Below, piece by piece: positions 1,789-52,911 of a stretch of DNA of 64,000 nucleotides. The DNA is from Nitrospirota bacterium. GTDB lineage: Bacteria; Nitrospirota; UBA9217. Below the pieces are notes generated by a model. That model saw only the letters and a list, made by a program, of their open reading frames with translations, was not told the DNA's origin and searched no databases. The DNA lies in contig CAWFSF010000005.1 in the NCBI GenBank assembly GCA_963818475.1, forward strand, positions 733,035 through 797,034, in the 5' to 3' direction. The translations under genes and the position numbers were made by a program. Each line of letters starts with the position of its first letter. The stretch's first letter is position 1.

Positions 1789-1864
1789 TGGTAGGCGGAA
1801 CAGGGATCGAACCTGTGACCCCAGCCTTGTAAGGGCTGTGCTCTCCCAGCTGAGCTATCCGCCC
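1789..1864 (-). tRNA. tRNA-Val(TAC)
   Basis: Reverse complement GGGCGGATAGCTCAGCTGGGAGAGCACAGCCCTTACAAGGCTGGGGTCACAGGTTCGATCCCTGTTCCGCCTACCA; TTGACA upstream at 1912-1917. Confidence 0.97.
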
Positions 1865-15388: not shown

Positions 15389-15609
15389 AAGTGAGGGAGG
15401 AGGATCGAGATGGGGCTCAAGGGAAAGAAAAGCGTTAGGTTACGGATGGTTGTGTTTTTGATGAACAGACGGCACTATGCGGCCGGGATAGGCCAGGGGG
15501 AACAATGCATATGATTATCGTAAGGAGGGTATTCGATTTTCGAATAGCTGGGGGAACTGCGGATGGGCTTGCCGGTCGGCTAAAAGGAACGCAGCGTAGC
15601 CGAAAACAC

Positions 15610-15656
15610 ACCTGTCACTATTGACAGGTGACAGAGAACAAAAAATCAAATACAAT
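15610..15656 (+). promoter_or_regulatory. lux-box-like palindrome + sigma70 promoter (copy 1), upstream of the Rhs gene
   Basis: ACCTGTCACTATTGACAGGT overlapping GTGACA-N17-TACAAT. Confidence 0.7.
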
Positions 15657-15865
15657 CTCGCATCAAATTGTCGAGGGCACTTCGATCTAGCGAACTTGGC
15701 GAAAAATCTAGCGTATGGCAAGATGATTCAATGGGAGTAGGCGATTTTGCAGAATAATTCATGGTTTCAGTCTGACCGCTATCTGCCCGGGTGAGCTTGA
15801 AACAGCTCGATGTACGATACATGAACAGATCCGTCGGGAATTCGTGGATATTTAAGGGGGGCGTC

Positions 15866-18800
15866 TTGAACAAACAACTCATATTTTTACCCGGTTTTCT
15901 GCTGGTGGCTCTCTGCGCGAACGCATGGGGCGCAACTGGAACGGTCTCGATAACGAATCCAAAGGACGATATTACAATTACGGATAATAATGTTGTGGTC
16001 AATGGGACTTATTCCCTGACCTCGGACGCCACTCCAAGAGGATATGGCCCGAATGGCTTCCCCTGCTCGGATGGAGTTGGGGGAGTATATCGACTTCCTT
16101 ATCAACCTGATGAACATAACGCGAATACCGGTGTGTATGCCAAACTTCAATATACTCTGGACGGCCAGGTAATCACCAGCTCGCATGTCATCAGGGGAAT
16201 CGGGACAGGCTCTTTTGGTAAAACTTTTTACGGCCTTGCTTTTGGTGTCAATCATACGATCACGGTTTCATTAATAGACATATGGGGCGCAACGTGCGCA
16301 GGAAATGGGTGGACCGGCAGTCCCGTGACAGGGGACCAGATTGGACAGGATTCGCATACCTTCCTCATATGCGCCCTGACGATCAGTAGTTTTACCAGCG
16401 ATGTAAGTCAAATCGACCCGGGAGCGGGAAATATAGCGAACTTGCGCGGTACGATAGCAGGCGCCGGAACTTCCCCAACATGGACCCTGGATATTAAAGA
16501 TCAAAGCGGAAAGGTCGTGCAATCGTTCGCGGGTTCAGGATCTGCTGTATCCGCTCAATGGGACGGCAAAGACGGCGCAGGCCAATCGGTACAGGATGGA
16601 ACGTACACGGCAACGCTTGTCGCAAAAGCGGGGAGCGATGCCTGCACGCAGAGCAAAAGCCTTACGATCAACGTCAAGAACTCCTGTCAGCTTAAAATAA
16701 CAACCATCAGCGGCTCGAGCGAAACTATAGACCCGATTGCCGGTGGAAGCGTTAAGGTTTCCGCCGATATCTATGATATCCCGGGCGCGTCTTACACCTG
16801 GGAATTTACTTTGCCGAACGGGAAAAGCGTCAGCGGCAGCGCTTCCGGCAGCACTAAGGCTTCGGCGACGTGGGATGGCCGTAACGCGAATGGCAAAATC
16901 ATGAAACCGGAACCGGGGCAGACAATCTCGGCAACGATTATTCTAAAAGTCACGGACACAAAAAACCCCGGCTGCGCCGACAGTGAAACAAAGAACGTAA
17001 CCATATCATGGACCAATGATTGTAAACTTCAAATAACTTTCGGGTCTTCGGCCAATGCGGCATCCGGCAATCTTTCTCACAGCCAGCCGGTGTTTTCGAC
17101 AAAAGGCGCAAGTCTCCCCACAAGTATCACTCTTTACTACAATAGTCTTGATTCGTATAACGGTCCGCTTGGAATCGGGTGGACCCATAACTACAATAGC
17201 GCAATCGGCGAGAGCAGCGATGGTTACGTGGTCTTACAAGAAGGTGACGGCGGAAGAAATGTCTACACGAAGAGCGGCAACGGATATATTTCTCAATCGG
17301 GGGATTATTCCGTGTTGTCAAGAAATACAGACGGAACGTTTGTTGTTGCCCAAAAGGACGGAACGACGTACAACTTCGGAACCAACGGCAAGATCGCGTC
17401 CATCGTCGACCGAAACGGTAATGCCATGTCGTTCGCTTACACTAATGGCAATCTGATAACGATCACCGATTCTGCCGGAAGGGTCACGACGATACGCTAC
17501 GATATGGCCAACCATGTCGCCTCGATCACCGATCCGAGCGGCAACGTCAATTCGTTCACAGTAAACAATAACACGCTGACGAGCGTTGCCTATCCCGGCG
17601 GAGGAACATGGTCCTACGCCTATGACGCCGCCTTCATGCTCACCAAGACCGACCCGAACGGCAATACGACGACATACACCTATGACGATCAGCACCGGGT
17701 AGCCTCGTCCCTTGCCGAGGGAAATACAAGACTCATCAGTTATCCCACGAATACCGGCACTACGAAGACCACGACTTTCACGGAAACAGACGGCGGCGTG
17801 TGGCAGTACACCTACGACACCCAGGCAGGCACGCTCACGCAGAAGACCGACCCCCAGGGCGGCGTTACGAGTTACACCTATGATGGTAACCGGAACACGC
17901 TCTCAACAACTGAACCCGATGGCAGCGCTACGACCTACACCTATGATGCAAGCGGTAATATGGCCTCAGTCACTGACGCCCTCGGCCAGACTACGAGCTA
18001 CACGTACAATACCTTTGGTCAGGTTTTGACTGTCACTGATAGCCAGGGGAACACCACGACCAACGGCTATGATGAAAAAGGCAATCTCACGTCAACGACC
18101 GATGCGACCGGCGCAACCACGAGTTACGAGTATGACACGCAGGGACATGTCACAAAAATGACAAATCCCGTCGGCCAGTCAACCGAATTCACTTATGACC
18201 AGAGCGGCAATCTCTCCTCTGTCACCGATCCCACCGGAGCAACCACATCTTTTACGTACGACGCTGCAGGCAATGTCACAAGCCAGACCGATGCAAATGG
18301 CAACACCACCCGCTTTGAATACGACAGCGATAACCGCCTGACCAAAGTCACTGACCCGGCAGGCAATGTCACGACCTTCGGCTACGACAAGAACGGCAAC
18401 CGCACATCCCAGACCGACGCCAACGGGAACGTGACCCGCTTCGAGTACAATGCCAAAGGGCAGTTGATAAAGGCCATTGACGCCCTTGGCAACAGCACAA
18501 CGTACACCTATGGCGGCGCCGGCTGCCCCTCGTGCGGAGGCGGCGGGGATAAGCTCACCTCCATAATTGACGCGAACGGCAACACTACCAGCTATGAATA
18601 CGATCAGCTCGGCCGGAAGACTAAAGAGATCGATGCGCTCGGCAATGCCACGCTGTATTCGTATGACGCAAAAGGGAACATCCTCACCAAGACCGACGCA
18701 AACGGCCATGTAACATCGTTCGTTTATGATCCGCTCGGCAGGGTAAAGGAGCAGACCGATGCGCTCCTGGGAGTGGTGAAATTCGAATATTCCCCAAAAG

Positions 18801-20668
18801 GTCAGGTCACCAAGGTCGTCGATGCTCTTGGCAATGCCACGGACTATGAATATGACACAGCCGGTAGAGTGATAAAGACCGTCTCGCCCGACACCGGCAC
18901 AACCACTTACACGTACAACTCAACCGGCACCCTTGCCACGATAACCGATGCGGGCAACGTAACCATTTCGTATCGGTACGACGCATTGAACAGGCTGACA
19001 ACCATAGACTTTCCGACGGATGTCGATATCGCCTATACCTACGATGACTGCTCAAACGGCAAAGGCCGCGTCTGCACCATGACCGATCAGGCGGGAACGA
19101 CAGAGTACGAATATGAGAAGCGCGGCCGGATCGTAAAAGAAAAAAAGACGATCCTCGGCGTTACCTACACAACAAGCTACTCATACGATAAAGCCGGCAC
19201 GCTTAAAAGCATTACCCTGCCAAGCGGCCGTCAGGTAACCTATACCTACGACAAGGTCAACCGGCCCGCAGGCGTTACCACGAAACTCAAAAACACGACG
19301 GTTCTGGCGAGCAGCATGGCCTACGACCCGGCCTCCAATCTCGCATCCATCACCCTGGGCAACGGTCTCACCCCGTCCTATACGTACAACGCGGCTCGAA
19401 GGATCAGCACGATTGCAGTCCCTGGCGTCATGTCGCTATCATACGGCTATGATCCAATCGGGAACATCACGAACATCACTGATGCGGTCGATCCCGCGAA
19501 GTCAAAAACGTATGCGTATGACTCGCTTGATCGTCTAGCAAGCGCGATGGGGCCATGGGGCACGCTCGCCTGGACCTATGATGCCAACGGCAACCGCCTG
19601 GTTCAGGGGAACGGTGTTCACTACGCTTACACGTATAGCGCAAACCGCCTTGCAACAGTGAGCAACGGCCATATCGATTATTATCAGTACGACAATAACG
19701 GCAATACCACGAATGACGGGCAAAAGGATTTCGTGTATAATCAGAACCAGCGATTGATCAGGGCGGAGCTGGACGGCAAGACCCTCGTGGAATACACGTA
19801 CAACGCCAACGGTCAGCGGGTCATCAAGAAAACGGGGCCGGCAACAACGAACAGCGCCAGCAGTCAGAACATGGTGTACCATTTTGATCTGAACGGAAAA
19901 CTCATTGCGGAAACCGCAGGCAACGGCAAGATGATCGCCGAATACGTCTATCTGAGCAGCCAGCCCCTCGCGATGATCTCGAAGCAGGCAAACAACGAAA
20001 GGACCTATTACTACCACAACGATCATTTAGGTACCCCGCAGAAACTTACCGACGCGACAGGCACCGTTGTATGGTTTGCTGACTACAAGCCCTTTGGTGA
20101 AGCGACGATCACCGAATCCACGATCACGAATAACCTCCGATTCCCCGGACAGTACTACGATGCCGTGACGGGGCTGAATTATAACTATTACAGAGATTAT
20201 AATCCGACGATTGGAAGATACATAGAGAGTGACCCGATCGGAATCCGACGTGGAAAGAACCATCTCTATGTTTACGTCGCGAACAACCCAGCCAAGTTTA
20301 CGGATCCTTGGGGGCTGAAGAATTATTCGAATCCTGATCTAGGTCAATTCGGTCCAGTGCCGAATGCGATATATGATTTTATCGATAATTACTTGAAGAT
20401 GCGGGATGCCAACACTATTGGGGCAGATAAATATTTTCACTGCATGGCAAATTGTCAGGCTGCTAAAGAAGGGCCTGTAGGAAGTGGGATAGCTGGATTG
20501 ACAAGCGAATGCCGCGAGCTTTCTGATGAGCATATAAAGGGAGACCCTCGTTCTGCTTGTGATGCAGATAGAAAAGCAAACCGTTGTGGGAGAGAGGGCA
20601 ATCCAGACGTACCATGTAAAGAAACCTGTTCCCCGTTCCGGCCTGCTGGTCTTGACTCTAAATATTGA
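15866..20668 (+). CDS. Secreted Rhs/YD-repeat polymorphic toxin with serum amyloid A-like C-terminal domain
   Basis: TTG start with RBS and Sec signal; FlgD-Ig-like WDG repeats; DUF6531-like GPLGIGWTHNY; many YD repeats; Rhs core (NLRFPGQYYD...YNYYRDYNP...DPIG); cleavage motif DPWGL at 20303-20317. Confidence 0.92.
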   Translation: MNKQLIFLPGFLLVALCANAWGATGTVSITNPKDDITITDNNVVVNGTYSLTSDATPRGYGPNGFPCSDGVGGVYRLPYQPDEHNANTGVYAKLQYTLDGQVITSSHVIRGIGTGSFGKTFYGLAFGVNHTITVSLIDIWGATCAGNGWTGSPVTGDQIGQDSHTFLICALTISSFTSDVSQIDPGAGNIANLRGTIAGAGTSPTWTLDIKDQSGKVVQSFAGSGSAVSAQWDGKDGAGQSVQDGTYTATLVAKAGSDACTQSKSLTINVKNSCQLKITTISGSSETIDPIAGGSVKVSADIYDIPGASYTWEFTLPNGKSVSGSASGSTKASATWDGRNANGKIMKPEPGQTISATIILKVTDTKNPGCADSETKNVTISWTNDCKLQITFGSSANAASGNLSHSQPVFSTKGASLPTSITLYYNSLDSYNGPLGIGWTHNYNSAIGESSDGYVVLQEGDGGRNVYTKSGNGYISQSGDYSVLSRNTDGTFVVAQKDGTTYNFGTNGKIASIVDRNGNAMSFAYTNGNLITITDSAGRVTTIRYDMANHVASITDPSGNVNSFTVNNNTLTSVAYPGGGTWSYAYDAAFMLTKTDPNGNTTTYTYDDQHRVASSLAEGNTRLISYPTNTGTTKTTTFTETDGGVWQYTYDTQAGTLTQKTDPQGGVTSYTYDGNRNTLSTTEPDGSATTYTYDASGNMASVTDALGQTTSYTYNTFGQVLTVTDSQGNTTTNGYDEKGNLTSTTDATGATTSYEYDTQGHVTKMTNPVGQSTEFTYDQSGNLSSVTDPTGATTSFTYDAAGNVTSQTDANGNTTRFEYDSDNRLTKVTDPAGNVTTFGYDKNGNRTSQTDANGNVTRFEYNAKGQLIKAIDALGNSTTYTYGGAGCPSCGGGGDKLTSIIDANGNTTSYEYDQLGRKTKEIDALGNATLYSYDAKGNILTKTDANGHVTSFVYDPLGRVKEQTDALLGVVKFEYSPKGQVTKVVDALGNATDYEYDTAGRVIKTVSPDTGTTTYTYNSTGTLATITDAGNVTISYRYDALNRLTTIDFPTDVDIAYTYDDCSNGKGRVCTMTDQAGTTEYEYEKRGRIVKEKKTILGVTYTTSYSYDKAGTLKSITLPSGRQVTYTYDKVNRPAGVTTKLKNTTVLASSMAYDPASNLASITLGNGLTPSYTYNAARRISTIAVPGVMSLSYGYDPIGNITNITDAVDPAKSKTYAYDSLDRLASAMGPWGTLAWTYDANGNRLVQGNGVHYAYTYSANRLATVSNGHIDYYQYDNNGNTTNDGQKDFVYNQNQRLIRAELDGKTLVEYTYNANGQRVIKKTGPATTNSASSQNMVYHFDLNGKLIAETAGNGKMIAEYVYLSSQPLAMISKQANNERTYYYHNDHLGTPQKLTDATGTVVWFADYKPFGEATITESTITNNLRFPGQYYDAVTGLNYNYYRDYNPTIGRYIESDPIGIRRGKNHLYVYVANNPAKFTDPWGLKNYSNPDLGQFGPVPNAIYDFIDNYLKMRDANTIGADKYFHCMANCQAAKEGPVGSGIAGLTSECRELSDEHIKGDPRSACDADRKANRCGREGNPDVPCKETCSPFRPAGLDSKY

Positions 20669-20684
20669 TCACGAGGTGTTAACC

Positions 20685-41934: not shown

Positions 41935-42261
41935 TTACGCCGCCGCCTTGTGCGCTTCCACGCGGAGTTGCACGCGCTCGTTCGTCTGCAGGATCTTGAT
42001 GATCTCCAGGATGTTGTCCGCACGAGGATTGCCGCGCGGCCCGAGCATGCGGTGCACGCTCTTGTCCGTCTTCTTGAGCTTCTTCGCAAGTTGCTGGAAG
42101 GTGATGGTCGCGTTGATGTAGTCGCGGAGCATGGCCTTGCCCGCATCCAGGTCCCCTGCCAGCAGCTCATTGACCGCTTCGGTCAGCATCTGTCTTCTGA
42201 ATGCAGGATCGCTTATGGCTCGTTCCATAATAGTCGTTCTGAATTTACGCGTAATAGGCAT
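41935..42261 (-). CDS. HTH antitoxin (addiction-module antidote)
   Basis: LRDYINATITF..LA...KSVHRMLGPRGNP; directly downstream of the RelE-like toxin. Confidence 0.85.
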   Translation of the reverse strand: MPITRKFRTTIMERAISDPAFRRQMLTEAVNELLAGDLDAGKAMLRDYINATITFQQLAKKLKKTDKSVHRMLGPRGNPRADNILEIIKILQTNERVQLRVEAHKAAA

Positions 42262-42270
42262 GGTATTACC

Positions 42271-42603
42271 TCATTTCTTTTTTGCTCTGACTTGCTTATA
42301 CTCCACCCATAGCGTGTGGGCGATCTGAATGTCTTTTTGCTGGGTCTTCTTGGCCCCGCCTCCCAGCAGGATGACCAGCTCAACGCCCTCCTGGCCGAAA
42401 TAGATCCGGTAGCCGGGACCGAAATCAATCTTATATTCTGACACCCCTTTTCCAACAGATTTTACCTGCGAAAAATTTCCCTGTTCCAGCCGATAGAGCG
42501 CTACAGCCACCTTCGCTGCGGCGTGCGCATCAAGCGCCGAGAACCACCCAGCGAACGGTGATGATCCTGCCTTCACATATTCGATGACTTTTCGGTTGGC
42601 CAT
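42271..42603 (-). CDS. RelE/ParE-family toxin (addiction-module killer)
   Basis: SPFAGWF, GNF..KSVG.GVSEYKIDFGPGYRIYF, LLGGG.KK.Q.KDI. Confidence 0.9.
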   Translation of the reverse strand: MANRKVIEYVKAGSSPFAGWFSALDAHAAAKVAVALYRLEQGNFSQVKSVGKGVSEYKIDFGPGYRIYFGQEGVELVILLGGGAKKTQQKDIQIAHTLWVEYKQVRAKKK

Positions 42604-42616
42604 CCACGCTCCCTAA

Positions 42617-42643
42617 GGTAACACATATGTTACCAATAGTCAA
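42617..42643 (-). promoter_or_regulatory. Toxin-antitoxin promoter with operator palindrome
   Basis: GGTAACACATATGTTACC palindrome within TTGACT-N17-TACCTT. Confidence 0.6.
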
Positions 42644-42699
42644 CAGACTACTTTTTCTTTCCGGCCCCGAACTGCTTGTTCACAACCTTCTTCACGATC

Positions 42700-43585
42700 T
42701 CATTCGCCGTTTCCTTTGACCGCAATCTTCTTCACACCGTACTTTTTTGAAGGATCTGCCTTCTTCGCTAATTTAATATCCATCTTCAACTGCTGTTTGA
42801 GGACCTTCCGCACATCTGCCATGCGAACGCTCTCCGGTGTTTGTATTTCAACGGCGCTAGCCGATGTTGCCGAACCTGTCGCTTGCTCACGATCGGCACC
42901 TCGCGCAGCGGAGCGATGAGCGTTGTCAATCATCCGGGAACTCTTTTGCGAAGTCTTTTGGAGAAGCTCCGACCTCTTGCTCGATACGGGACCTTTGATC
43001 AGGTCGGACATGGCAACACCTCGAAGCGTAAAAAAGAGCGTCGGGTCTTCGTCGAGCCTGGCGCCGATGCCATAGAGCGTCGCTGCAATGTGCTTGCACA
43101 TGCTCGCCCAGTCCGGACAGGAGCACTCGAATTCGATCTCCCTGGGTGACGGGAACAAGCCTGTCTTTGGCTGCATGAACGCTTCTTCGACTGCCTTGGG
43201 GAATTTTCCGGCCAGCAGTTCTTCGAGCGGACGCCAGTTTGCCTCGGCACGCGGAGGCGACCAGGTTCCAGGTGTTCTTGTTCAGCTTTTGTATCCTGAT
43301 CAAGACCTGATAGGGCTTCGCCCGGGAGCCCTGCACCAGTGCCGTGATCTCTCCGGCGCTGACCTGGAGGTCCAGGATTGCTCCACTCCCGACAGAGCTT
43401 CTGCCCCGTCCGATCCGGCTCGCGTACTCCGCGTAGGATTCAAGGTTCCTGTTCCACGCCTTGCCCCACCAGGTTCGCGCAATGACGCCGCCATCGATGA
43501 TCACCGGCCGAAGGTCCTGCTTTTTCTTCAGCTGATCCAGCTTCCCGGCCTTGCGGATATGTTTCGAAAAACTCCAGGCTGACAT
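42700..43585 (-). pseudogene. SWIM zinc-finger protein, frameshifted and probably decayed
   Basis: TWWGKAWNRNLESY...RIGRGRS, ALVQGS..PY; CSCPDWASMCKH in a different frame. Confidence 0.75.
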
Positions 43586-43758
43586 GATCTCCTTGATGTG
43601 GCGCTTCAATATTGGTGAAGTCTTAATAACTGAAGATGGCCACAAAATGCACAGAAAGCACAAAAGTAAAGCATTAGAAAACTAAATATTTTTTCTGTCC
43701 CTTTTGTGACTTATGTGGCTAAAAAGACTTTTTAGACGTAGTTTCCGGATCGTATCGT

Positions 43759-44154
43759 TCAGGTCTTGCCTTTTGACATTTCCGGTTTCGAACGAGCACC
43801 CTTGCTGATAACACGCTTTGCGTGATACGGCGCAGACGCTTCCGCCACACGCATTCCCGCCGTTTTTTTCTCCGGCTCGAAGGTTACTCGCACCCGCGCA
43901 TGTAAAACCTTGGCGACGCGCCTCAGGGTGCTGAGTGAATGTCCTTCGTAGCCAGGTGATTCCAGCCTGCTGATCTGCTGCTGGGATATTTTAAGGAGCT
44001 TTGCGAGGTCCTTCTGGGAAAGCCCCGCCTTGTTCCGAAGGGCGGCGATCTGGAGCGCCACATCCCAGGCTTCTCCAGCGCGCTCGAAACGGGCGGCAAA
44101 CGACCTGTCTTTCAATTGTTCTTCCAGAAATTTATCGAAATTCGTCTTTTTCAT
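43759..44154 (-). CDS. XRE/HigA-like HTH antitoxin; cognate toxin reduced to a remnant
   Basis: MKKTNFDKFLEEQLKD..F; LRNKAGLSQKDLA...SQQQISRLE; SLSTLRRVAKVL. Confidence 0.85.
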   Translation of the reverse strand: MKKTNFDKFLEEQLKDRSFAARFERAGEAWDVALQIAALRNKAGLSQKDLAKLLKISQQQISRLESPGYEGHSLSTLRRVAKVLHARVRVTFEPEKKTAGMRVAEASAPYHAKRVISKGARSKPEMSKGKT

Positions 44155-44301
44155 CGTCCTGCCATTCTGATCAGAGCTCTTCAACTCTTCCAGAAAATCC
44201 CGCGCACAGGGCAAGCCCCTGTTTCCATCCCATAGAATTCTACGATAAAATCCATAATCATTCAACAACAATATTGTTGTATAGGTCATCGGCTCATCAC
44301 G

Positions 44302-44433
44302 GGAAACTTTTTGAATTAGGGCGGGTTTGGAACCCGCCCCTACATAACGTTACGCCGGCCTGATGGACTGCCTCTTGCCCGCCGCCATATTTTCCGCGTG
44401 TCACGCAATGCCGCTCTTTTTATCTGAAGGATG
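44302..44433. repeat. Intergenic module A, second copy at 47827-47959
   Basis: Shared ttgaattagg.cgggtttg.aacccgcccctacataacgttacgccggcctgatggactgc...; partial copy at ~49912. Confidence 0.85.
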
Positions 44434-44463
44434 TATCCCTGAAGCCCAACAAATTATTGCAGG

Positions 44464-44510
44464 ATTTTACACGATTTATTGTCCGCTGTCACCTGTCAGA
44501 AGTGACAGGT
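44464..44510 (-). promoter_or_regulatory. lux-box-like palindrome + sigma70 promoter (copy 3)
   Basis: ACCTGTCACTTCTGACAGGT; GTGACA-N17-TAAAAT. Confidence 0.7.
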
Positions 44511-44522
44511 GCTTTCTTTCCA

Positions 44523-44622
44523 GCCGGGATTTACGGTATCATCGAGTTTAGCAATGAACGTGCCGCGCTATTCGCTGCATGCTTCACGAATAGTATGCCC
44601 TATTCAAAGTGATGTCAACGAT
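44523..44622 (-). promoter_or_regulatory. Repeated ~100-bp promoter module C (also 55379-55472, 60760-60855, 63300-63388)
   Basis: TTGACA-N17-TACTAT/TATATT with a GAATA(G)-N-CTATTC palindrome; sigma54-like CGGCACGTTCATTGCT at 44550-44565. Confidence 0.65.
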
Positions 44623-44989
44623 AACGAACGGGGGCGCGGCCGGCCTCTCAGGACTAAATGAGGCGCTGCGGTTTTTTTTAGCTACAGACCATGAGGTCGT
44701 TTTGCATAGTTGCTCACATTGTTCAAGGTGCCCGCAACCGGCTTTTTTGGCTTATTCCGAAATCATTTGTAAAATCTCATTGAATAAAATCGGCTCTTAT
44801 TATATACTTGTTCAAGTACGCAAGGCCGTTACTGCATTCAAACCCCGCTGGCCTCCGTTTTCCCGGTTCGACAAGATCGTGATGCTGGGCGGCATGCGGA
44901 CGTTTCAGCGTATCACGCTGCAGCGCAGCTGGTCTATGCATCGGCTGGTTCGTTCCGGTCCTTGTGCCGTACCAGAGAGAGAGTTCGAC

Positions 44990-45316
44990 ATGATGAATTC
45001 GACAATGGCAAACACAGTTCGCAGTTTTCTCGCATGCAGCATGATCCTTCTGGCGCTGTCCGGCTGTGCCCGTCTGCAAAAAGGCCCGAAACCGGCTGCC
45101 CGCTCGCAGGCGAAACCGGTCGATGCCAAAGCCCAGCAGCACTACTACGACCTGGGCCTTCAGCAGTACTCCAAAGAGAACTACGGAAAAGCCAAGGAGT
45201 CGTTCCAGCAGGCCGTTGAGTTCGGGCCGAATACTGCGCTGGGACTGAAGGCGCAGGATAACCTGAAAAAGATACAGAAGATCCTGAAAACACTTGAGGA
45301 GTTCGAATCAAAATGA
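44990..45316 (+). CDS. Small TPR-like lipoprotein
   Basis: Lipobox LSGC; YYDLGLQQY..ENYGKAKESFQQAV; stop overlaps the next start. Confidence 0.75.
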   Translation: MMNSTMANTVRSFLACSMILLALSGCARLQKGPKPAARSQAKPVDAKAQQHYYDLGLQQYSKENYGKAKESFQQAVEFGPNTALGLKAQDNLKKIQKILKTLEEFESK

Positions 45317-47172
45317 CCGACGACCCTGTCCGCATCGAGGCCGATCCTGCGCCGGAACCAGAGGCAGCCGCAGCACCGCAACCGACCCAGCCTGAGAAAA
45401 AGAGCGTTGCTGCTGCGGCGCTCCTGCCGAAACCGGAAGCCCCCGCTGCTCCTTCCTGGCTTCTCCATCGCATCAATTCCGTGAGCGTTCGCTATAAGAT
45501 CGCGGGCACGCTCCTCATCATCCTGAGCCTGGCCGTCGCCTCCCTCGGCATCGTGACCTTTGCACGCCAGAACGCGATCCTGCGCAATGAAATGAAAAGC
45601 CGCGCAACGACGCTTGCCCATCAGCTGGCGAACGTGGGCAAGGAAGGCCTGCTTACCAAACAGGAAATGCCGGTCTACTCCACCATTACGGACATCCTGA
45701 AACGGGATGATGTCGTCTATGCCATGGTCCTGGATGCCGAGGGGAGGGTCTTTGCCCACAGCGATCTTTCCAAAAAAGGCTCGGTTCCCCACGAAGCCTC
45801 GGACAGGGCGGCATTAAAGGCCGGGGACCGGCTGTTCCAGGAGACGCTCTTCAACAACGACGCTGTTCTGGACACCACGGTCCCGATCACCCTGAAGGCG
45901 ATGAATATGAAGCTCGGCGTGGCCAGGGTCGGCCTGTCGGAGAAAACGCTGAACGAATCCATCCGCAAGCAGAAAGCCATCTATCTCTGGGTCGCCCTGG
46001 GGTTCGTTGGCGGCGGCCTGCTGGTCTCCTTTGCCCTTGCCCGCATGATCACGAAGCCGCTCGATTCGCTGGCCGAAGGCATCAAGGTCGTCAGCCGGGG
46101 GGATCTGCGCAAGCTGGTGGCGGTGTACTCCGACGACGAGATCGGCAACCTGACCAACGCGTTCAATAAAATGATCCTGAGCCTGCGCGAGAAGCTCCTT
46201 ATGGAGAAGTACCTGTCGCAGTCCACGGTCGCAAGCATCAAGGAGCACCGTGACGTGACGCAGCTGAAGCTGGGCGGCGAGCGGAAGTACGTGACCGCCC
46301 TGTTCTCCGATGCACGCGGCTTCACGTCCCTGTCGGAGAAGATGAGCCCCGAGGACGTGGTCCGTCTCATGAACGTCTACCTGAACCTGCAGGCACAGGT
46401 CATTCACCAGTTCGGCGGGACCATCGACAAGTTCGTCGGCGACGAGGTCATGGCCATCTTCGAGGGCAGGGGGAATGAGATCAATGCGGTCAGGGCAGCC
46501 GTGGAGATCCAGAGCTACTGCAGGGAGCTGAACGCGGCCCGAGCAGCGGCGGGCGAGAAGACCATCTCCATCGGCATCGGCCTCAACAGCGGCGAGGTCG
46601 TCATGGGGAACATGGGCTCCGAGGACCACATGGACTATACGGTCATCGGCGACAACATCAACATTGCGGCGCGCATGTGCGGCATTGCCCAGCCGGGGCA
46701 GGTGCTGGCCGGCAAATCCATTGCCGATGCGATCGGCGAGAACGCAACGATGATGGAAATGCACCCGGTCATAGTGAAGGGCAAGGACCAGCCGATCGGC
46801 GTTGCCGAGGTGGTGAGCGTCAAGGGCGGAGCGCGGCGGTACATGCGGAAGTCAACGGACGCCACGGCAACGTACACGCTCGAAGGGTTCTCCGACGAAA
46901 CCTACAACGCCTACATTAAGAACATCAGTCCGGCCGGATGTCTTTTGATGGTCGACGCGGCGGTGGCCATCGGCTCCAAATTGAACCTGGCCATGAACCT
47001 GCTGGCGCTCGATAACATGACGGTCCGCGCCACGGTCTATCACGCCAGAAAGCAGGAGCGGGCCTACTACGTCGGGCTTTGCTTCGAGGACCTGGAGGTG
47101 GAGGCCCGGCACCGCATCATTCAGTGGACGCACCAGGTGAACTCGGAGATCGTGGAAGGGCTGCTGCTGTAA
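45313..47172 (+). CDS. Membrane class III adenylate cyclase with HAMP and C-terminal PilZ domain
   Basis: TM-periplasmic-TM-HAMP; LFSDARGFT, DKFVGDEVM, YTVIGDNINIAAR; PilZ RRYMR...NISPAG. Confidence 0.9.
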   Translation: MTDDPVRIEADPAPEPEAAAAPQPTQPEKKSVAAAALLPKPEAPAAPSWLLHRINSVSVRYKIAGTLLIILSLAVASLGIVTFARQNAILRNEMKSRATTLAHQLANVGKEGLLTKQEMPVYSTITDILKRDDVVYAMVLDAEGRVFAHSDLSKKGSVPHEASDRAALKAGDRLFQETLFNNDAVLDTTVPITLKAMNMKLGVARVGLSEKTLNESIRKQKAIYLWVALGFVGGGLLVSFALARMITKPLDSLAEGIKVVSRGDLRKLVAVYSDDEIGNLTNAFNKMILSLREKLLMEKYLSQSTVASIKEHRDVTQLKLGGERKYVTALFSDARGFTSLSEKMSPEDVVRLMNVYLNLQAQVIHQFGGTIDKFVGDEVMAIFEGRGNEINAVRAAVEIQSYCRELNAARAAAGEKTISIGIGLNSGEVVMGNMGSEDHMDYTVIGDNINIAARMCGIAQPGQVLAGKSIADAIGENATMMEMHPVIVKGKDQPIGVAEVVSVKGGARRYMRKSTDATATYTLEGFSDETYNAYIKNISPAGCLLMVDAAVAIGSKLNLAMNLLALDNMTVRATVYHARKQERAYYVGLCFEDLEVEARHRIIQWTHQVNSEIVEGLLL

Positions 47173-47481
47173 AGACCGGGGAAGCGAAGGGGCAGGACTT
47201 CGGGTTTTGCTTGCGCTCTACCCGACCTATGAAACTTGTACGATAAAGAGCCGATAATTATCAAAAGAACGCAAAAAAAAGTATCAACTGCATCAGGGTA
47301 TTTCTCAGGAGGAGCAAAGACCGCACAGAGAAGAAACATGCCGAATACAATTGCAACAGTGGAGCCCCAGAATTGTTTATACATGGTTTCCTCCATCACT
47401 CCTACTCCGTTCCTCCGAACGGGATGGATGCTAGCAGGGATATCCCGAGTGCATTTGGGCTCACTTCAGCGCCTATTCCTT

Positions 47482-47724
47482 TTATACGGAGATCTTCCGT
47501 CTTGGAGCAGCTGGCCCTTGCCTTATCGCCGACTCAAGTTCAGCGGTAAAAAAACGTCCGTTGGACGGCCGCATTCTCGGACTGACATGAAGTCCCTCCG
47601 GAACGAATTCTCCGCATAAGCACTCCCATCCTCCGTCTGCAAAGAATTCGTCGTGAAGTGTTCTTCCGCAGATAGGACAGAGACATTCTTCTTCATGACG
47701 TAAAGTGTTGTCTCTTGCAACCAT
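47482..47724 (-). CDS. Small Cys-rich (zinc-finger-like) hypothetical protein
   Basis: GAGG RBS; CPICG...WECLCGE. Confidence 0.45.
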   Translation of the reverse strand: MVARDNTLRHEEECLCPICGRTLHDEFFADGGWECLCGEFVPEGLHVSPRMRPSNGRFFTAELESAIRQGPAAPRRKISV

Positions 47725-48014
47725 ATGCCGGCACCTCTTTCTTTCATCAAACTTTCGGCGTTGTTCGGCATAGAGGCGTCGGGTTTCACAAAGAAACGTT
47801 CTACCTGACCTACCCGGCTCATCTCAGGAACCTTTTTGAATTAGGACGGGTTTGAAACCCGCCCCTACATAACGTTACGCCGGCCTGATGGACTGCCGCT
47901 TGCCCGCCGCCATATTCTGCGCATGTCCCGCAAGGCCGACCTGCTTTAGCTGGAGGATGCAGGCCCGCCTGTCCGAGCGCAGGACAAATCCGATGACCTA
48001 GTGCATCTTAACTT

Positions 48015-49312
48015 CTACGGATTGGGCGCCTGATAACTTCCGGAGCTCGATTTCGACATACTTCCTTCATAAGCATACGTGCTCACGGAAAAATAATCGA
48101 CCTTGTTCGGTCTGAATGCTGCAAGGGAATCGGGCAGCTCCGGATATCTGAAACTGGTCCTTGAGCGCATTAAATTGCCAAGAGATAAATACAAGTAGGT
48201 TTCCGCGGAATGGAAACCCGCATTGATATAGATATCGGTCGCAGCCGGATCCGTTCCAGACCAGGACAGAGTCGGTGTGGCCGTATTTGCACCGATTACG
48301 GTGACCGAGGGGGCCGAGAGCGCTTTACTGAGATCAAAGCTTTGATCCGAGGGCGCGCTTCCTGACGTTTGCAAATGTAAGCTTTGGTGAGAATCTGCGA
48401 TACCATCGTGGTCCTGGTCAAGCTCTGCATCAATTCCATAGCTGACTTCGCTGCCAAACCCGGGGATGTAAGCCACCGCGAGGGTTGTGGAGGACAGACC
48501 GGATAGAAGTGAATATGATTGACCAGACCAGAAACCCGGAATGCCGTTGTAAATGCTCATGGAAGGCTGGAGCGTGACAGCGGTGGCCGGTATGTTCGAG
48601 ATCTGGTACTGCACGAAGCTCATAGGCTCCATCGGTATGTCTACGATCATCCCATCAGTGAACGTCTGACCCGTCAGAATACCATAAGCGATAGTATTAT
48701 ACTGAGCGTCCTTGCCTTGCACGAAAATGGAAAAGGTGCCGTCGTTATCAAGATCGCTCTCTCGCAGGGTAATGGTTTGCTTGGTTAGCAGGCTTTATAC
48801 CCAAGCGAATATCTGTGACCGACCGATATCTGATTCCGAGTAACTCCGATCGGCGTATTGGTCACGTTCACGGTGATCGTACCTAAGGGGAGATCACTCA
48901 CCGGAGGCAGGATCGAAGGACCTGCTGCCGTAGCTGCACAATTGTTCAGGGACAGAACGGCCGAACTATTAACGTCGAACTGGACGGTGATGGAATACGT
49001 CGTTGTCGTCGATCCCGACCGTAGGCACGTGATGGCCGCGGTAACGGTCGCATCGGCCGGCGCATGGTCGAAGGTGATCTGCCCTTCGGCGTCGGTCACG
49101 CCGGAGGCCTTCATCGCACCGTTGCTGTCGCCCAGGACCACCGTTGCATTCGGCACGCGAATGCCTGAATAGTCGGTTACCGTAACGATGGCTGATGCGC
49201 CTTCGTTGTCGCTGCCGGCGCTGCCATCGTTTCCGCCTCTACAACCTGACACTGATGAAGATAGTACGACCACGAATAACCAAAAGCAGATCTTTCTCGT
49301 GCGCTTAATCAT
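48015..49312 (-). CDS. Lipoprotein with carboxypeptidase-regulatory/Ig-like domains (indel ~48790)
   Basis: Lipobox VSGC; VPNATVVL...GVTDAEGQITF; continues in ORF 48015-48722. Confidence 0.7.
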
Positions 49313-49422
49313 TGGCCAGCCCTCGATCTTTCAAATGCAAAATAGTTGTTCGTCCTGTCCCCGCAGTCTTGAAAAGCATTGACAAAGCCGGGGCCGAAGT
49401 GCTCCCGACAAATTATTACAGG

Positions 49423-49469
49423 ATTTTACATGATTTATTGTCCGCTGTCACCTGTCAGAAGTGACAGGT
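49423..49469 (-). promoter_or_regulatory. lux-box-like palindrome + sigma70 promoter (copy 4)
   Basis: ACCTGTCACTTCTGACAGGT; GTGACA-N17-TAAAAT; homology to copy 5 extends over 49411-49543 and 51567-51699. Confidence 0.7.
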
Positions 49470-49540
49470 GCTGTTCCTCCAGCCGTCTTGTGGTCGCAAT
49501 CATCGGGGTCGTTGTGGCCCCGGATTCTTTTGGCTCTCTC

Positions 49541-49778
49541 AGCAGGTGATGTGCGTAAAAGCATTACGCAAACACGAAGTTACAGGAAAGCGTTTCAAAA
49601 GGCAAGTTTCATGATGGGGTATTTTCAGGGTAGTGACGGTGGGGTTCAGGGGCACGTCCGACCCTTTACGGCCTCGGGCAGAACCGGCGCTACCTTCTTT
49701 CTCCGGCTTTCCGCAAGGGGTGAACCGCAGAGAACGCCAGGGAGAGGATCACCGTGTACGCAGAAAGCGCGAAGCACG
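49541..49778. repeat. 238-bp near-perfect duplicate of 52763-53000 (3' end and downstream region of the membrane protein gene)
   Basis: Direct comparison; one visible substitution. Confidence 0.92.
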
Positions 49779-50091
49779 GGGGACTTTGGGGACGTTGTTA
49801 CTTACGTTGCGTTATGGCTCCACACCCAATCTTTTCACGCCTGTGTTCTGTAATACCGTCAGGCGTTTTGATGGGGACCGTGTTCCTAACTGTGCTTTAC
49901 TCCGAATGCTATGCCGGTCTGATGGACTGCTCTTGACGTGGCTAGTCTGTTAAAAGCATATATGGAGACAACGTTAGGCTCCCTATCGTCGTATCGAAAA
50001 AGGCCGGAAAAAAATTATTTCCGGCCTGGGATTATAAGCAGTGATCGCATTGTGAGGACGCAGACCTGTCCCTATAGCCTACTGTCGCAAT

Positions 50092-51210
50092 TTAAAGGCG
50101 AATCATCTTGGATAGAATAATATTGCCGTTGGCGTCATGCCCGAGGATGAATACGGCATCATCTGTTCCAAGCGCCATGTCGTCTATCGGTCCCACGGGA
50201 TAGGAATCGTTGATGCGGAAGGCGGTCTTGTTCTTGATCTTGTAGAGCGAGCTCGAGTTGGCGTAGCTCCACTTCGACACGATGATGTTGTCCTTCCTGT
50301 CGATCTCCAGGGCGCCGAATCCTGAATTCCATTCATATCCTCCCCTGGAATCGGGATAGAAGGGGAGCTTCGACTCAAGCACCACGCCGTCGGGAGAGAA
50401 TTTTATGATATAGGGCGTCGCTTCCGCGCCGCCCCTGCAGTACATCAGGATATACTTATAGCCGGATACGATGATGTTCCCGGAAGCGTCGGTCTTGACT
50501 TCGGCAATGGAAGTGTTATTGCCGCACACACCGCCCTGATATCCCGCGTAATCGATTGCGGTCAGAACGAGAGCGCCGTCCGGGCTGTACTTCTGGATCT
50601 TGGCGAAAGTCCGGTAATAGTCTGACGTCAAGGCAAGGACGACGCTGCCGGTACCGTCCACGGCGAGGTCCGACGTTAGCGACGAAAGCGAGGGTAAGTT
50701 CCAGGCAAACGTGCCCGCGCTGTCGTATTTGGTCAGCGTGTACGCGCCAAGCCGGAGCGAAAAGACCAGGAGTTCGTCGGAGGGACCGGTAACGACCTTC
50801 AGGATCCTGTCGTTCGGAAGGGTCTTTTCCCAGGCGACCGTTCCGTCCGGATTGTGCTTGATGATGATGTCCATGAGACCGACATAGAGGCTTCCGGACC
50901 GGTCGATGGCTGCCGCCGGCCTGCCGGGATCCGCGAGGTTTTGAAAACTCTCGCGTGAGATGCTGCTGTCCCACCTGGCAACGCCGTCCTCATCAGTAAC
51001 GATCAAATGCAGATTCACGATGCCGGTTGGGTCGGCGAAGGTCGAGACGACGGCGACCGTCCCTCCCTTGGTAACGACCTGCGTGGCTTCGCCCTGGCCG
51101 ATCGTTTTTTCCCAGAGCAGCGGGTTCTGCCCGCCGAATGCCGTTCCGGCCAGAACAATGAAAGCAAGAAGAGAAAGAATAACTGTTTTGTTCATCGAAC
51201 TTTTTTTCAT
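50092..51210 (-). CDS. Secreted beta-propeller (SBBP/NHL-like) protein
   Basis: GGAGG RBS, signal peptide; repeated AID.SG.LYV, KY..DG...W and D.SGNIIVSG blades. Confidence 0.75.
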   Translation of the reverse strand: MKKSSMNKTVILSLLAFIVLAGTAFGGQNPLLWEKTIGQGEATQVVTKGGTVAVVSTFADPTGIVNLHLIVTDEDGVARWDSSISRESFQNLADPGRPAAAIDRSGSLYVGLMDIIIKHNPDGTVAWEKTLPNDRILKVVTGPSDELLVFSLRLGAYTLTKYDSAGTFAWNLPSLSSLTSDLAVDGTGSVVLALTSDYYRTFAKIQKYSPDGALVLTAIDYAGYQGGVCGNNTSIAEVKTDASGNIIVSGYKYILMYCRGGAEATPYIIKFSPDGVVLESKLPFYPDSRGGYEWNSGFGALEIDRKDNIIVSKWSYANSSSLYKIKNKTAFRINDSYPVGPIDDMALGTDDAVFILGHDANGNIILSKMIRL

Positions 51211-51578
51211 GTGGACCTCCCCCTTGATTTGTATTTTTGCGGATTGCCGCACTTAAGATTAGGTTTCTTATTTATATGGGGATGTTTATTTGGGACGTGT
51301 GCTTTACTCTGAATCAGCATCTATGCCGTGGCTAGTTTGTTAGAAGCATCCATTGAAACAATGCCCTCTCGATTTTCCCAATATCATCCACCGGTGACGA
51401 TGACATCAAATTCGACAAGAGCGTCGAAGTGGTTTTTCAAAAAAAACGCTTTCGAAGATATGCGCCCGGACATGCCCGTCAATTAAGATTCTGCGCAATG
51501 TACTTCCCCAGCATGCCGTAACTATTGACCGTAGGATGGATTCTGCTGTGACGCGTCCCCGGACGGAATTATTACAGG

Positions 51579-51625
51579 ATTGTAAATGATTTATTGTCCT
51601 CTGTCACCTGTCAGAAGTGACAGGT
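51579..51625 (-). promoter_or_regulatory. lux-box-like palindrome + sigma70 promoter (copy 5)
   Basis: ACCTGTCACTTCTGACAGGT; GTGACA-N17-TACAAT. Confidence 0.7.
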
Positions 51626-51749
51626 GCTGTTTCTCCGGCAGTCTTGTGGTCGTTATCATCGGAGTCGTTGTGGCCCCGGATTCTTTTGGCTCTCTCAGCT
51701 TCATTTCTACCTGGCGATCGGTTAAATGATAGCCATGGCCAAGGATTCC

Positions 51750-52703: not shown

Positions 52704-52911
52704 TTGTCTCAGGTTTTTTGAATGACATTCAGGATACCGTTTAGGGGCTCCACTCTTCCTTAAGCAGGTGATGTGCGTAAAAGCATTACGCAAACACGAA
52801 GTTACAGGAAAGAGTTTCAAAAGGCAAGTTTCATGATGGGGTATTTTCAGGGTAGTGACGGTGGGGTTCAGGGGCACGTCCGACCCTTTACGGCCTCGGG
52901 CAGAACCGGCG

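Follow-up and report, generated by a model that had tools for sequence, protein, structure and literature searches.

A lux-type promoter cassette present at 28 sites and a LuxR-type protein without an autoinducer-binding domain in a Nitrospirota genome

The lux box of Aliivibrio fischeri, a 20-bp dyad of known sequence at position -42.5 in the luxI promoter, has ACCTG...CAGGT arms that touch the -35 region, and its regulator, LuxR, has a GerE-type helix-turn-helix (HTH). Here we describe sites of the same design in a 64,000-nucleotide stretch of DNA from an uncultured Nitrospirota bacterium (the window; G000:C5:733035-797034), and follow them through its whole assembly (4.66 Mb in 7 contigs, 91% complete, 6% contamination) and through related genomes. 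In contrast to the A. fischeri system, the inner bases here are TCA-N4-TGA, a good -35 element, GTGACA, is kept, 28 sites appear to be copies of one cassette, no LuxI was found, and the candidate regulator, a short protein that we call LuxR-delta, is without an autoinducer-binding domain.

The closest system in the same phylum is that of Nitrospira, for which PMC8553950 reports that NspR1 activates and binds the box ACCTGGCGGTTCCGCCAGGT, that a shift in the electrophoretic mobility shift assay was seen only with RNA polymerase present, and that the box is common to nspI and a divergent GGDEF/EAL gene. The outer arms are the same as those described here, and divergent use of a box seems to recur in two relatives of our organism, G006 and G019, discussed below. 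A third genome, G032, has the box ACCTGGCGGATCCGCCAGGTgaca beside luxI/luxR, nearly the same as ACCTGGCGGTTCCGCCAGGT, and then GACA. NspR1, in the account of PMC8553950, is full-length and C8-homoserine lactone dependent, with two or three confirmed targets, whereas here a truncated receptor would serve 28 predicted targets.

A laboratory counterpart of LuxR-delta also exists. Without its N-terminal domain, V. fischeri LuxR activates constitutively and needs no autoinducer (PMC2845093, citing Choi and Greenberg 1991), and the engineered LuxR delta 2-156 and delta 2-162 described in PMC2845093 likewise lost the sensor domain and activate as autoinducer-free DNA-binding proteins; in that work the construct stood downstream of a two-component sensor with positive feedback, an arrangement that the natural LuxR-delta operon resembles. 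Unlike these deletions, as PMC2845093 presents them, LuxR-delta is natural and conserved, and of the sensor domain it still has the last helix, in addition to two N-terminal helices. It resembles LuxR solos in being a LuxR-family gene without a cognate LuxI, but solos by the definition given in PMC4338825 keep the autoinducer-binding domain, which LuxR-delta lacks. TrlR and CerN, according to PMC11655674, miss the DNA-binding domain, the opposite truncation, and the N-terminally truncated LuxR-like genes beside luxI solos in Sphingobium were read in PMC4288048 as remnants, with no regulon given in that account. Among NarL/FixJ-type regulators, G215 and G235 encode proteins with a receiver (REC) domain and a GerE domain of quorum-sensing (QS) type HTH, and the G215 gene adjoins a box; LuxR-delta, in contrast, is without a receiver domain and only adjoins kinase and receiver genes. 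Near-identical promoters before unrelated genes in one genome have been described as promoter reuse by putative mobile promoters (PMC3575422); in comparison with the cases described there, the reused promoter here carries the operator of an identifiable regulator family, so that a whole regulon would have been built by copying. Open-access word searches, which are not proof of absence, did not turn up any account of a LuxR that is conserved, lacks the pocket and has an expanded box regulon.

The box and its promoter cassette

Five dyads of the form ACCTGTCA-N4-TGACAGGT occur in the window, at 15610, 28820, 44491, 49450 and 51606, all exact with no mismatches; 0.02 would be expected, and a count of five was reached in none of 100 dinucleotide shuffles. 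The site at 15610 is on the + strand and the other four are on the - strand. The original prediction, made from the letters of this DNA alone, had given the same sites and orientations and had stated that each is followed by a promoter of fixed geometry, and the tabulated flanks bear this out: at all five, GTGACA begins in the final two bases (GT) of the dyad, and exactly 17 nt lie between this hexamer and a TACAAT or TAAAAT. The dyad centre lies ∼43.5 bp upstream of the predicted start, and with its overlap of dyad and -35 element this arrangement corresponds to class II activation by LuxR-family proteins. The distance from box to downstream open reading frame (ORF) is 89-353 nt. The five cassettes and the genes behind them are as follows.

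15607..15675, + strand: cassette 1, with box 15610-15629, -35 GTGACA 15628-15633, -10 TACAAT 15651-15656, predicted start ∼15663
15791..20668, + strand: Rhs-repeat toxin-like ORF of 1625 amino acids (aa), with RHS_repeat, RHS core and a C-terminal domain like serum amyloid A (SAA), behind cassette 1
28774..28842, - strand: cassette 2, with box 28820-28839, -35 28821-28816, -10 TACAAT 28798-28793, predicted start ∼28786
26546..28730, - strand: 374-aa secreted protein and 322-aa protein, behind cassette 2
44445..44513, - strand: cassette 3, with box 44491-44510, -10 TAAAAT 44469-44464, predicted start ∼44457
43759..44289, - strand: Xre-type HTH_3 ORF, 176 aa as listed (true start may be internal), behind cassette 3
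49404..49472, - strand: cassette 4, with box 49450-49469, -10 TAAAAT 49428-49423, predicted start ∼49416
48015..49312, - strand: 175-aa lipoprotein, with lipobox and weak Ig-like matches, and 235-aa ORF, behind cassette 4
51560..51628, - strand: cassette 5, with box 51606-51625, -10 TACAAT 51584-51579, predicted start ∼51572
50092..51252, - strand: 386-aa secreted protein with signal-like N-terminus and no Pfam family, behind cassette 5

A motif scan of the whole genome gave 28 sites, 22 exact and six with one mismatch. Two-mismatch boxes are absent genome-wide, the nine boxes at three mismatches look random, and a reversed-pattern control had no matches. GTGAC[AG] adjoins the box at 28 of 28 sites, on one side only, and all 28 are oriented; the random orientation that would count against the prediction is not seen. 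A 17-nt spacer and then a TAnnnT -10 element follow at 27 sites, and the exception, C6:579644, would fit with an 18-nt spacer when read by eye; at the same number of sites the position relative to the predicted -10 fits the expectation for a lux box (centre ∼42-44 bp upstream, touching the -35). The -35 element matches the consensus at five of six positions in 26 of the 28 sites, the -10 element at five or more of six in 22. All the sites lie outside open frames longer than 142 codons. The cassette consensus is gCACCTGTCAcTTcTGACAGGTGACAg.gaacaaaaAatca..TAcAaTc.tgcAa.aaattgt.gag. In several cassettes the box is preceded, at a distance of 4-10 bp, by an A-tract that might just as well be a bend as an UP-like element. 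Read in the other direction, the dyad followed by a T-run scores as an intrinsic-terminator-like hairpin (L011 15017-15044, - strand, and several box flanks).

The 28 cassettes share more than the box and core promoter. In an all-against-all comparison the copies were 75-93% identical over a common module whose limits, counted from the palindrome start, are about -3 and +65; beyond these sharp borders similarity stopped. The cassette of ∼70 bp comprises box, -35, spacer, -10 and the first ∼12 transcribed bases. Because spacer and leader are common, sites of intermediate quality are absent and the module borders are sharp, these comparisons indicate one cassette that was copied, rather than sites evolved independently. 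The statement of the original prediction that the spacers differ is right insofar as they are not identical, but they belong to one common module, and the independent evolution argued from it is not upheld.

The lipoprotein gene at 48785-49312 was compared with its orthologue in G001, and homology begins ∼40 bp before the start codon; the orthologue has a different sigma-70-like promoter upstream, without a box. Between G000 and G001 the whole promoter region is replaced, not interrupted, and no target-site duplication was seen at this single orthologous site. Elsewhere, four pairs of cassettes lie within larger duplications of 90-98% identity (C5:292180/C6:1641667; C6:280692/C6:874065; C2:833478/C3:157251; C6:737656/C6:741061), in which similarity extends ∼620 bp downstream, through transglutaminase-like paralogues, or 240 to at least 400 bp upstream. 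In a sample of 401 Nitrospirota genomes, mostly fragmented metagenome-assembled genomes (MAGs) that may under-represent accessory regions, the 400 others have at most three box matches each, and G000 alone has 28.

Half of the cassettes (14 of 28) retain a AAATTGTCGAGGGCACTTCG-like form of the initial ∼12-25 transcribed bases, as at 15663-15690 (+). This conservation exceeds the needs of a promoter, and a TTGTCGA in the leader resembles a box half-site. Structured RNA was considered as an explanation and discarded: Rfam gave only two tRNAs, and the 14 leaders with AAATTGTCGAG-like starts fold differently. In cassettes 4 and 5 the similarity continues for another 74 bp ahead of the box, with 93% identity (49470-49545 and 51626-51700), a stretch that on the + strand holds a G+C-rich hairpin and then a T-rich tract.

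The box-headed operons are unrelated and mostly accessory. Their products include Rhs, an HNH endonuclease, a trypsin-like/NS-endonuclease fusion, RNase T, phospholipase A1 and two transglutaminase-like paralogues, one with a weak CHAP match; large adhesins, a 2384-aa Ig-repeat protein, an NHL propeller and a TonB-dependent receptor; a Ser/Thr kinase and GGDEF, HD and receiver proteins; and DUF6765, DUF2339, LysE, DsrE and SIR2_2 proteins. The TonB receptor and OMPLA matches imply a diderm organism, and a Firmicute origin, which strong Shine-Dalgarno sites had at first suggested, was dropped in view of them.

In the window, four cassettes had been thought to point into genes for secreted proteins. 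The genes behind them encode Rhs, the lipoprotein and the 374-aa and 386-aa secreted proteins, but the finer labels do not all hold. The 374-aa protein carries a signal peptide and has only a sub-threshold phage-tail-repeat match in Pfam, leaving “tail-fibre/beta-helix” unconfirmed; the 386-aa protein has no Pfam match, so “beta-propeller” is unconfirmed as well. The metallopeptidase placed behind the 374-aa gene comes down to the 322-aa protein, whose weak match to Reprolysin_5 (M12-family peptidase; E 1.3e-4) is under the Pfam cut-off. Residues 1528-1625 of Rhs, past the RHS core motif, match PF00277, the serum amyloid A family (E 2.9e-23); such a domain is unusual where Rhs proteins carry their variable toxin end. 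The Xre-type HTH protein behind the box at 44491 and a weak-HTH protein behind that at C6:867287 were considered as paralogous autoregulators and rejected, as they are mutually dissimilar. Two tRNA genes at 1650-1723 and 1792-1864 (-) are the sole Rfam matches in the window at gathering threshold. Short stretches at 43500-43760 and 52740-52880 have many scattered matches in five of five same-genus genomes, at 75-90% identity, and are probably small dispersed repeats.

The box in relatives and the short regulator LuxR-delta

Forty relatives were scanned, and the pattern occurs once or not at all in each genome. G006 and G019 belong to the family of our organism but to two other genera. In each, the only exact box is 18-57 bp upstream of a luxI-type ORF (PF00765), and a convergent gene for a full-length LuxR of 251-252 aa, with PF03472 and GerE domains, adjoins. 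In the direction away from luxI, GACG, 21 nt and TATAGT come after the box, with the geometry of the window sites and unrelated spacers; on the luxI side, TATTGA stands at the same 21-nt offset in both genomes. Because -10-like elements lie at this offset on both sides, the dyad seems to serve two divergent promoters at these loci.

The wider LuxR clade was sampled as 74 loci from Nitrospirota, Geobacteraceae and other Desulfobacterota-type MAGs. The pattern ACCTG-N10-CAGGT, with at most one mismatch, gave 72 matches in 56 of these loci; a shuffled control of the 74 loci gave a mean of 17.5 and a maximum of 27 matches in 50 shuffles, and the real count is thus four-fold enriched. Among 71 tallied matches, 43 fall immediately beyond the luxR 3' end, in a region that makes up 17% of the bases. 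The original prediction had proposed that the sites are lux boxes, with a LuxR-type regulator encoded elsewhere, and had named a box upstream of luxI as a check. The identical box in the luxI promoters of G006 and G019, the clade-wide enrichment and the Nitrospira precedent support it, and on these comparisons the window dyad is a lux-type operator. Recognition-helix residues were also considered as the determinant of TGTCA versus TGTAA box type; inspection of 81 loci by eye gave no clean pattern.

When the G006 LuxR was used as a query against the G000 genome, it gave a single strong match, at C6:886436-886942 (E 3.4e-31), corresponding to the following ORF.

G000:C6:886445-886951, outside the window: LuxR-delta, 168 aa, GerE only

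The match comprises query residues 3-44 and 125-249 at 50% identity; residues 45-124 are missing, ∼4 codons replacing eighty. GerE matches with E 1.5e-19 and PF03472 is absent, and in an alignment with five full-length LuxRs the autoinducer pocket columns are deleted. LuxR-delta retains ∼45 N-terminal residues and the segment SRAEIIMNYALPHLRQAL, and its recognition helix is near-identical to those of G006 and G019; the retained parts comprise the first two helices, the last sensor-domain helix and the GerE HTH. An AlphaFold model (predicted local distance difference test score, 75.6) is all-helical, without beta-sheet, and disordered at residues 42-70, and the nearest solved relatives are CviR, RhlR, SdiA and LasR, all receptors for acyl-homoserine lactones (AHLs). 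A homodimer prediction scored 0.28 against a mark of 0.42 and was used neither for nor against.

G004, of the same genus, encodes a 210-aa orthologue, and the protein database holds 12 further GerE-only proteins of 114-210 aa at 58-81% identity. Eleven of the 12 were aligned with LuxR-delta and three full-length LuxRs; the ends are conserved, and the middle is short, variable and degenerate. Because of the G004 orthologue and these further short proteins LuxR-delta is not a one-off, and by this distribution it is a conserved protein, not an assembly accident. As the alignments indicate, it does not have the binding domain by which AHL-type LuxRs and LuxR solos are defined, yet clearly descends from them. 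Since N-terminal LuxR deletions are constitutively active, the simplest reading of LuxR-delta would be a ligand-independent activator.

Autoind_bind (PF03472) had no matches in the 91%-complete G000 genome, nor had Autoind_synth (PF00765) or the G006 LuxI protein as a query, with the HdtS and LuxM/AinS families not searched. The original prediction called for luxR and luxI homologues and for density-dependent, AHL-based control. One QS-type LuxR, the 168-aa protein, is present and no LuxI homologue is, and the density-dependent part finds no support in the genome as assembled: no LuxI and no autoinducer-binding domain were found, and the sole QS-type LuxR is pocket-less. Because LuxR-delta is without the pocket and no LuxI was found, the circuit probably no longer senses cell density.

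Box, short LuxR and kinase are linked in the genome. The box at C6:883021 is followed by co-directional genes for a REC protein, a 401-aa ORF, a PAS histidine kinase and LuxR-delta. The last gap of this run, the 324 bp that precede LuxR-delta, contains no terminator-like or promoter-like site on that strand, and no box by eye; a terminator-like hairpin follows the gene. LuxR-delta appears to be made from a box-headed operon, and we infer autoregulation by positive feedback. A group II intron reverse transcriptase/maturase ORF (RVT_1 and GIIM; L011 13322-14656, + strand) ends ∼365 bp before this box. In the metagenome locus L148, which encodes a 59%-identical short LuxR, an exact box lies 35 bp past the stop and is followed by GACA, 21 nt and TATAGT.

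At four of five loci the short LuxR gene is immediately preceded on its strand by a PAS kinase gene: G000 (L011 16889-18121), G004 (in L049/L144), L145 (7533-9491) and L146 (45-2003), but not L148. The kinase is a hybrid with a receiver domain in L145, L146 and apparently G004. In family f27, G215 and G235 encode 190-aa REC-GerE response regulators with a QS-type HTH, 59-63% identical to the G006 LuxR C-terminus.

L152 = G215:C124:485-1057, - strand: REC-GerE regulator, with a lux-type box 48 bp past the stop of the gene
L156 = G235:C74, 1153-1725 in the locus: REC-GerE regulator

Because a PAS kinase adjoins the short LuxR at four of five loci and REC-GerE proteins with a QS-type HTH exist, the gene neighborhoods suggest that short-LuxR input may now come from a phosphorelay. 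Ten other Nitrospirota genomes have a TGTCA-type box; six of these have a LuxR-clade match at E ≤ 1e-20, and none at that threshold was found in G198, G311, G369 or G131. The LuxR-clade gene lies within ∼1 kb of the box in three: G350 and G395 (∼0.6-0.7 kb) and G215 (∼50 bp).

Candidate mechanisms

The mechanism that we favor, with moderate confidence, has a ∼70-bp cassette of lux operator and sigma-70-type core promoter copied before ∼28 accessory operons. Transcription would be activated without AHL through cooperative binding of a LuxR-delta dimer and RNA polymerase at the dyad and the -35 next to it, and how much LuxR-delta is present, or in which state, would switch the regulon. LuxR-delta, which would be the most likely binder in this genome, would itself be expressed from the box-headed operon with the receiver and PAS kinase genes, giving positive feedback. 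A broader account, which we regard as possible though doubtful as a whole, is that a QS circuit was rewired to a cell-autonomous, kinase-linked switch; the LuxR would have lost its pocket and LuxI, kept its box and become coupled to the PAS kinase and receiver, and copying of the cassette would have brought ∼28 operons gained by horizontal transfer, for toxins, nucleases, adhesins and defence-like functions, under a single master switch with positive feedback.

Several observations weigh against activation by LuxR-delta. The strict geometry would in part be inherited by copying, which makes it weaker evidence for function than 28 independent sites. The near-consensus core promoters might fire without an activator, or a bound protein might hinder sigma. 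The genome has two other GerE-type response regulators, one directly upstream of a box, and with 91% completeness and 6% contamination a full-length luxR/luxI pair could be missing from the assembly. Within the genus, co-occurrence of box and short LuxR is patchy: G004 has the LuxR-delta orthologue and no box on its contig, with one weak two-mismatch match in a 74%-complete assembly; G001, G003 and G005 (65%, 71% and 92% complete) have one box each and no LuxR-delta at E ≤ 1e-15; and the flanks of L145 and L146, which encode the 209-210-aa subtype, contain no box.

There are four alternatives. Another GerE-type regulator might bind the box, the regulon then being a two-component output; the candidates are a 277-aa REC-GerE protein at C6:250932-251765, with orthologues in G003 and G005, and a NarL-type protein whose gene ends 116 bp before the box at C6:859684. 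G003 and G005 have the box and the 277-aa type and no LuxR-delta, the order of regulator gene and then box recurs at C6:859684, and the G215 and G235 proteins, with the box past the G215 stop, show that receiver-domain proteins can serve it. However, HTH matches of the two candidates to box-associated LuxRs are weaker (E 8e-17 and 1.8e-9, versus 3.4e-31 for LuxR-delta), and both are without the GK(S/C)TW(D/E)IS...ERTV signature common to LuxR-delta and the G006, G019 and G215 proteins, so that even taken jointly we consider them rather unlikely. Canonical AHL quorum sensing, with a full-length LuxR (and LuxI) in the unassembled 9%, or with sensing of AHLs from neighbours, would reduce LuxR-delta to a side player or competitor. 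The box is identical to that of the full-length LuxR/LuxI pairs in G006 and G019, and the assembly is incomplete; but PF00765 is found in none of the five same-genus genomes, which also have no full-length LuxR of the clade, their best matches being C-terminal only, and the genus keeps the short form instead, in G000 and G004. We regard this as unlikely too.

The remaining alternatives concern the promoter itself. The promoter might be strong in itself, and the cassette on by default, with bound LuxR-delta repressing or blocking it. The -35 and -10 elements are near-consensus with a 17-nt spacer, the box overlaps the -35 by 2 bp, and LuxR can repress when the box is inside the core promoter, as reported in PMC4444344. 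Here, however, the box is upstream of the -35 and merely touches it, whereas repressible designs place it between -35 and -10, and the same geometry is found in the luxI promoters of relatives, which are activated in known systems; repression is in our view improbable. A mobile-element end, such as a miniature inverted-repeat transposable element or the terminal repeat of an insertion sequence, would explain many copies in one genome and few in relatives, with no regulatory role. This is very unlikely and the last that we would choose: the 28 copies are single, gene-oriented and intergenic, all-against-all comparison revealed no partner end beyond the -3 and +65 borders, the promoter at the one orthologous site was replaced and not interrupted, with no target-site duplication seen, and the single copies of the relatives sit at luxI/luxR.

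Significance

Lux boxes and LuxR are textbook material, and one such system has been validated in Nitrospira. What is unusual here is, on the one hand, a natural, conserved LuxR with the DNA-binding half and the dimer-side helices and no ligand pocket, a counterpart of the laboratory N-terminal deletion, and, on the other, a 28-promoter regulon that appears to derive from one copied operator-promoter cassette, seen in a single species among the 401 Nitrospirota genomes of the sample. It is also unusual that three kinds of input module, an AHL pocket, a receiver domain and none, seem to serve the same HTH and box in related lineages. For annotation this is a warning that the receptor should be checked before a lux-box regulon is called “quorum sensing.” If binding and activation by LuxR-delta are true, this would be a clear case of a density-sensing circuit converted to other control, and it would show how accessory genes come under one switch.

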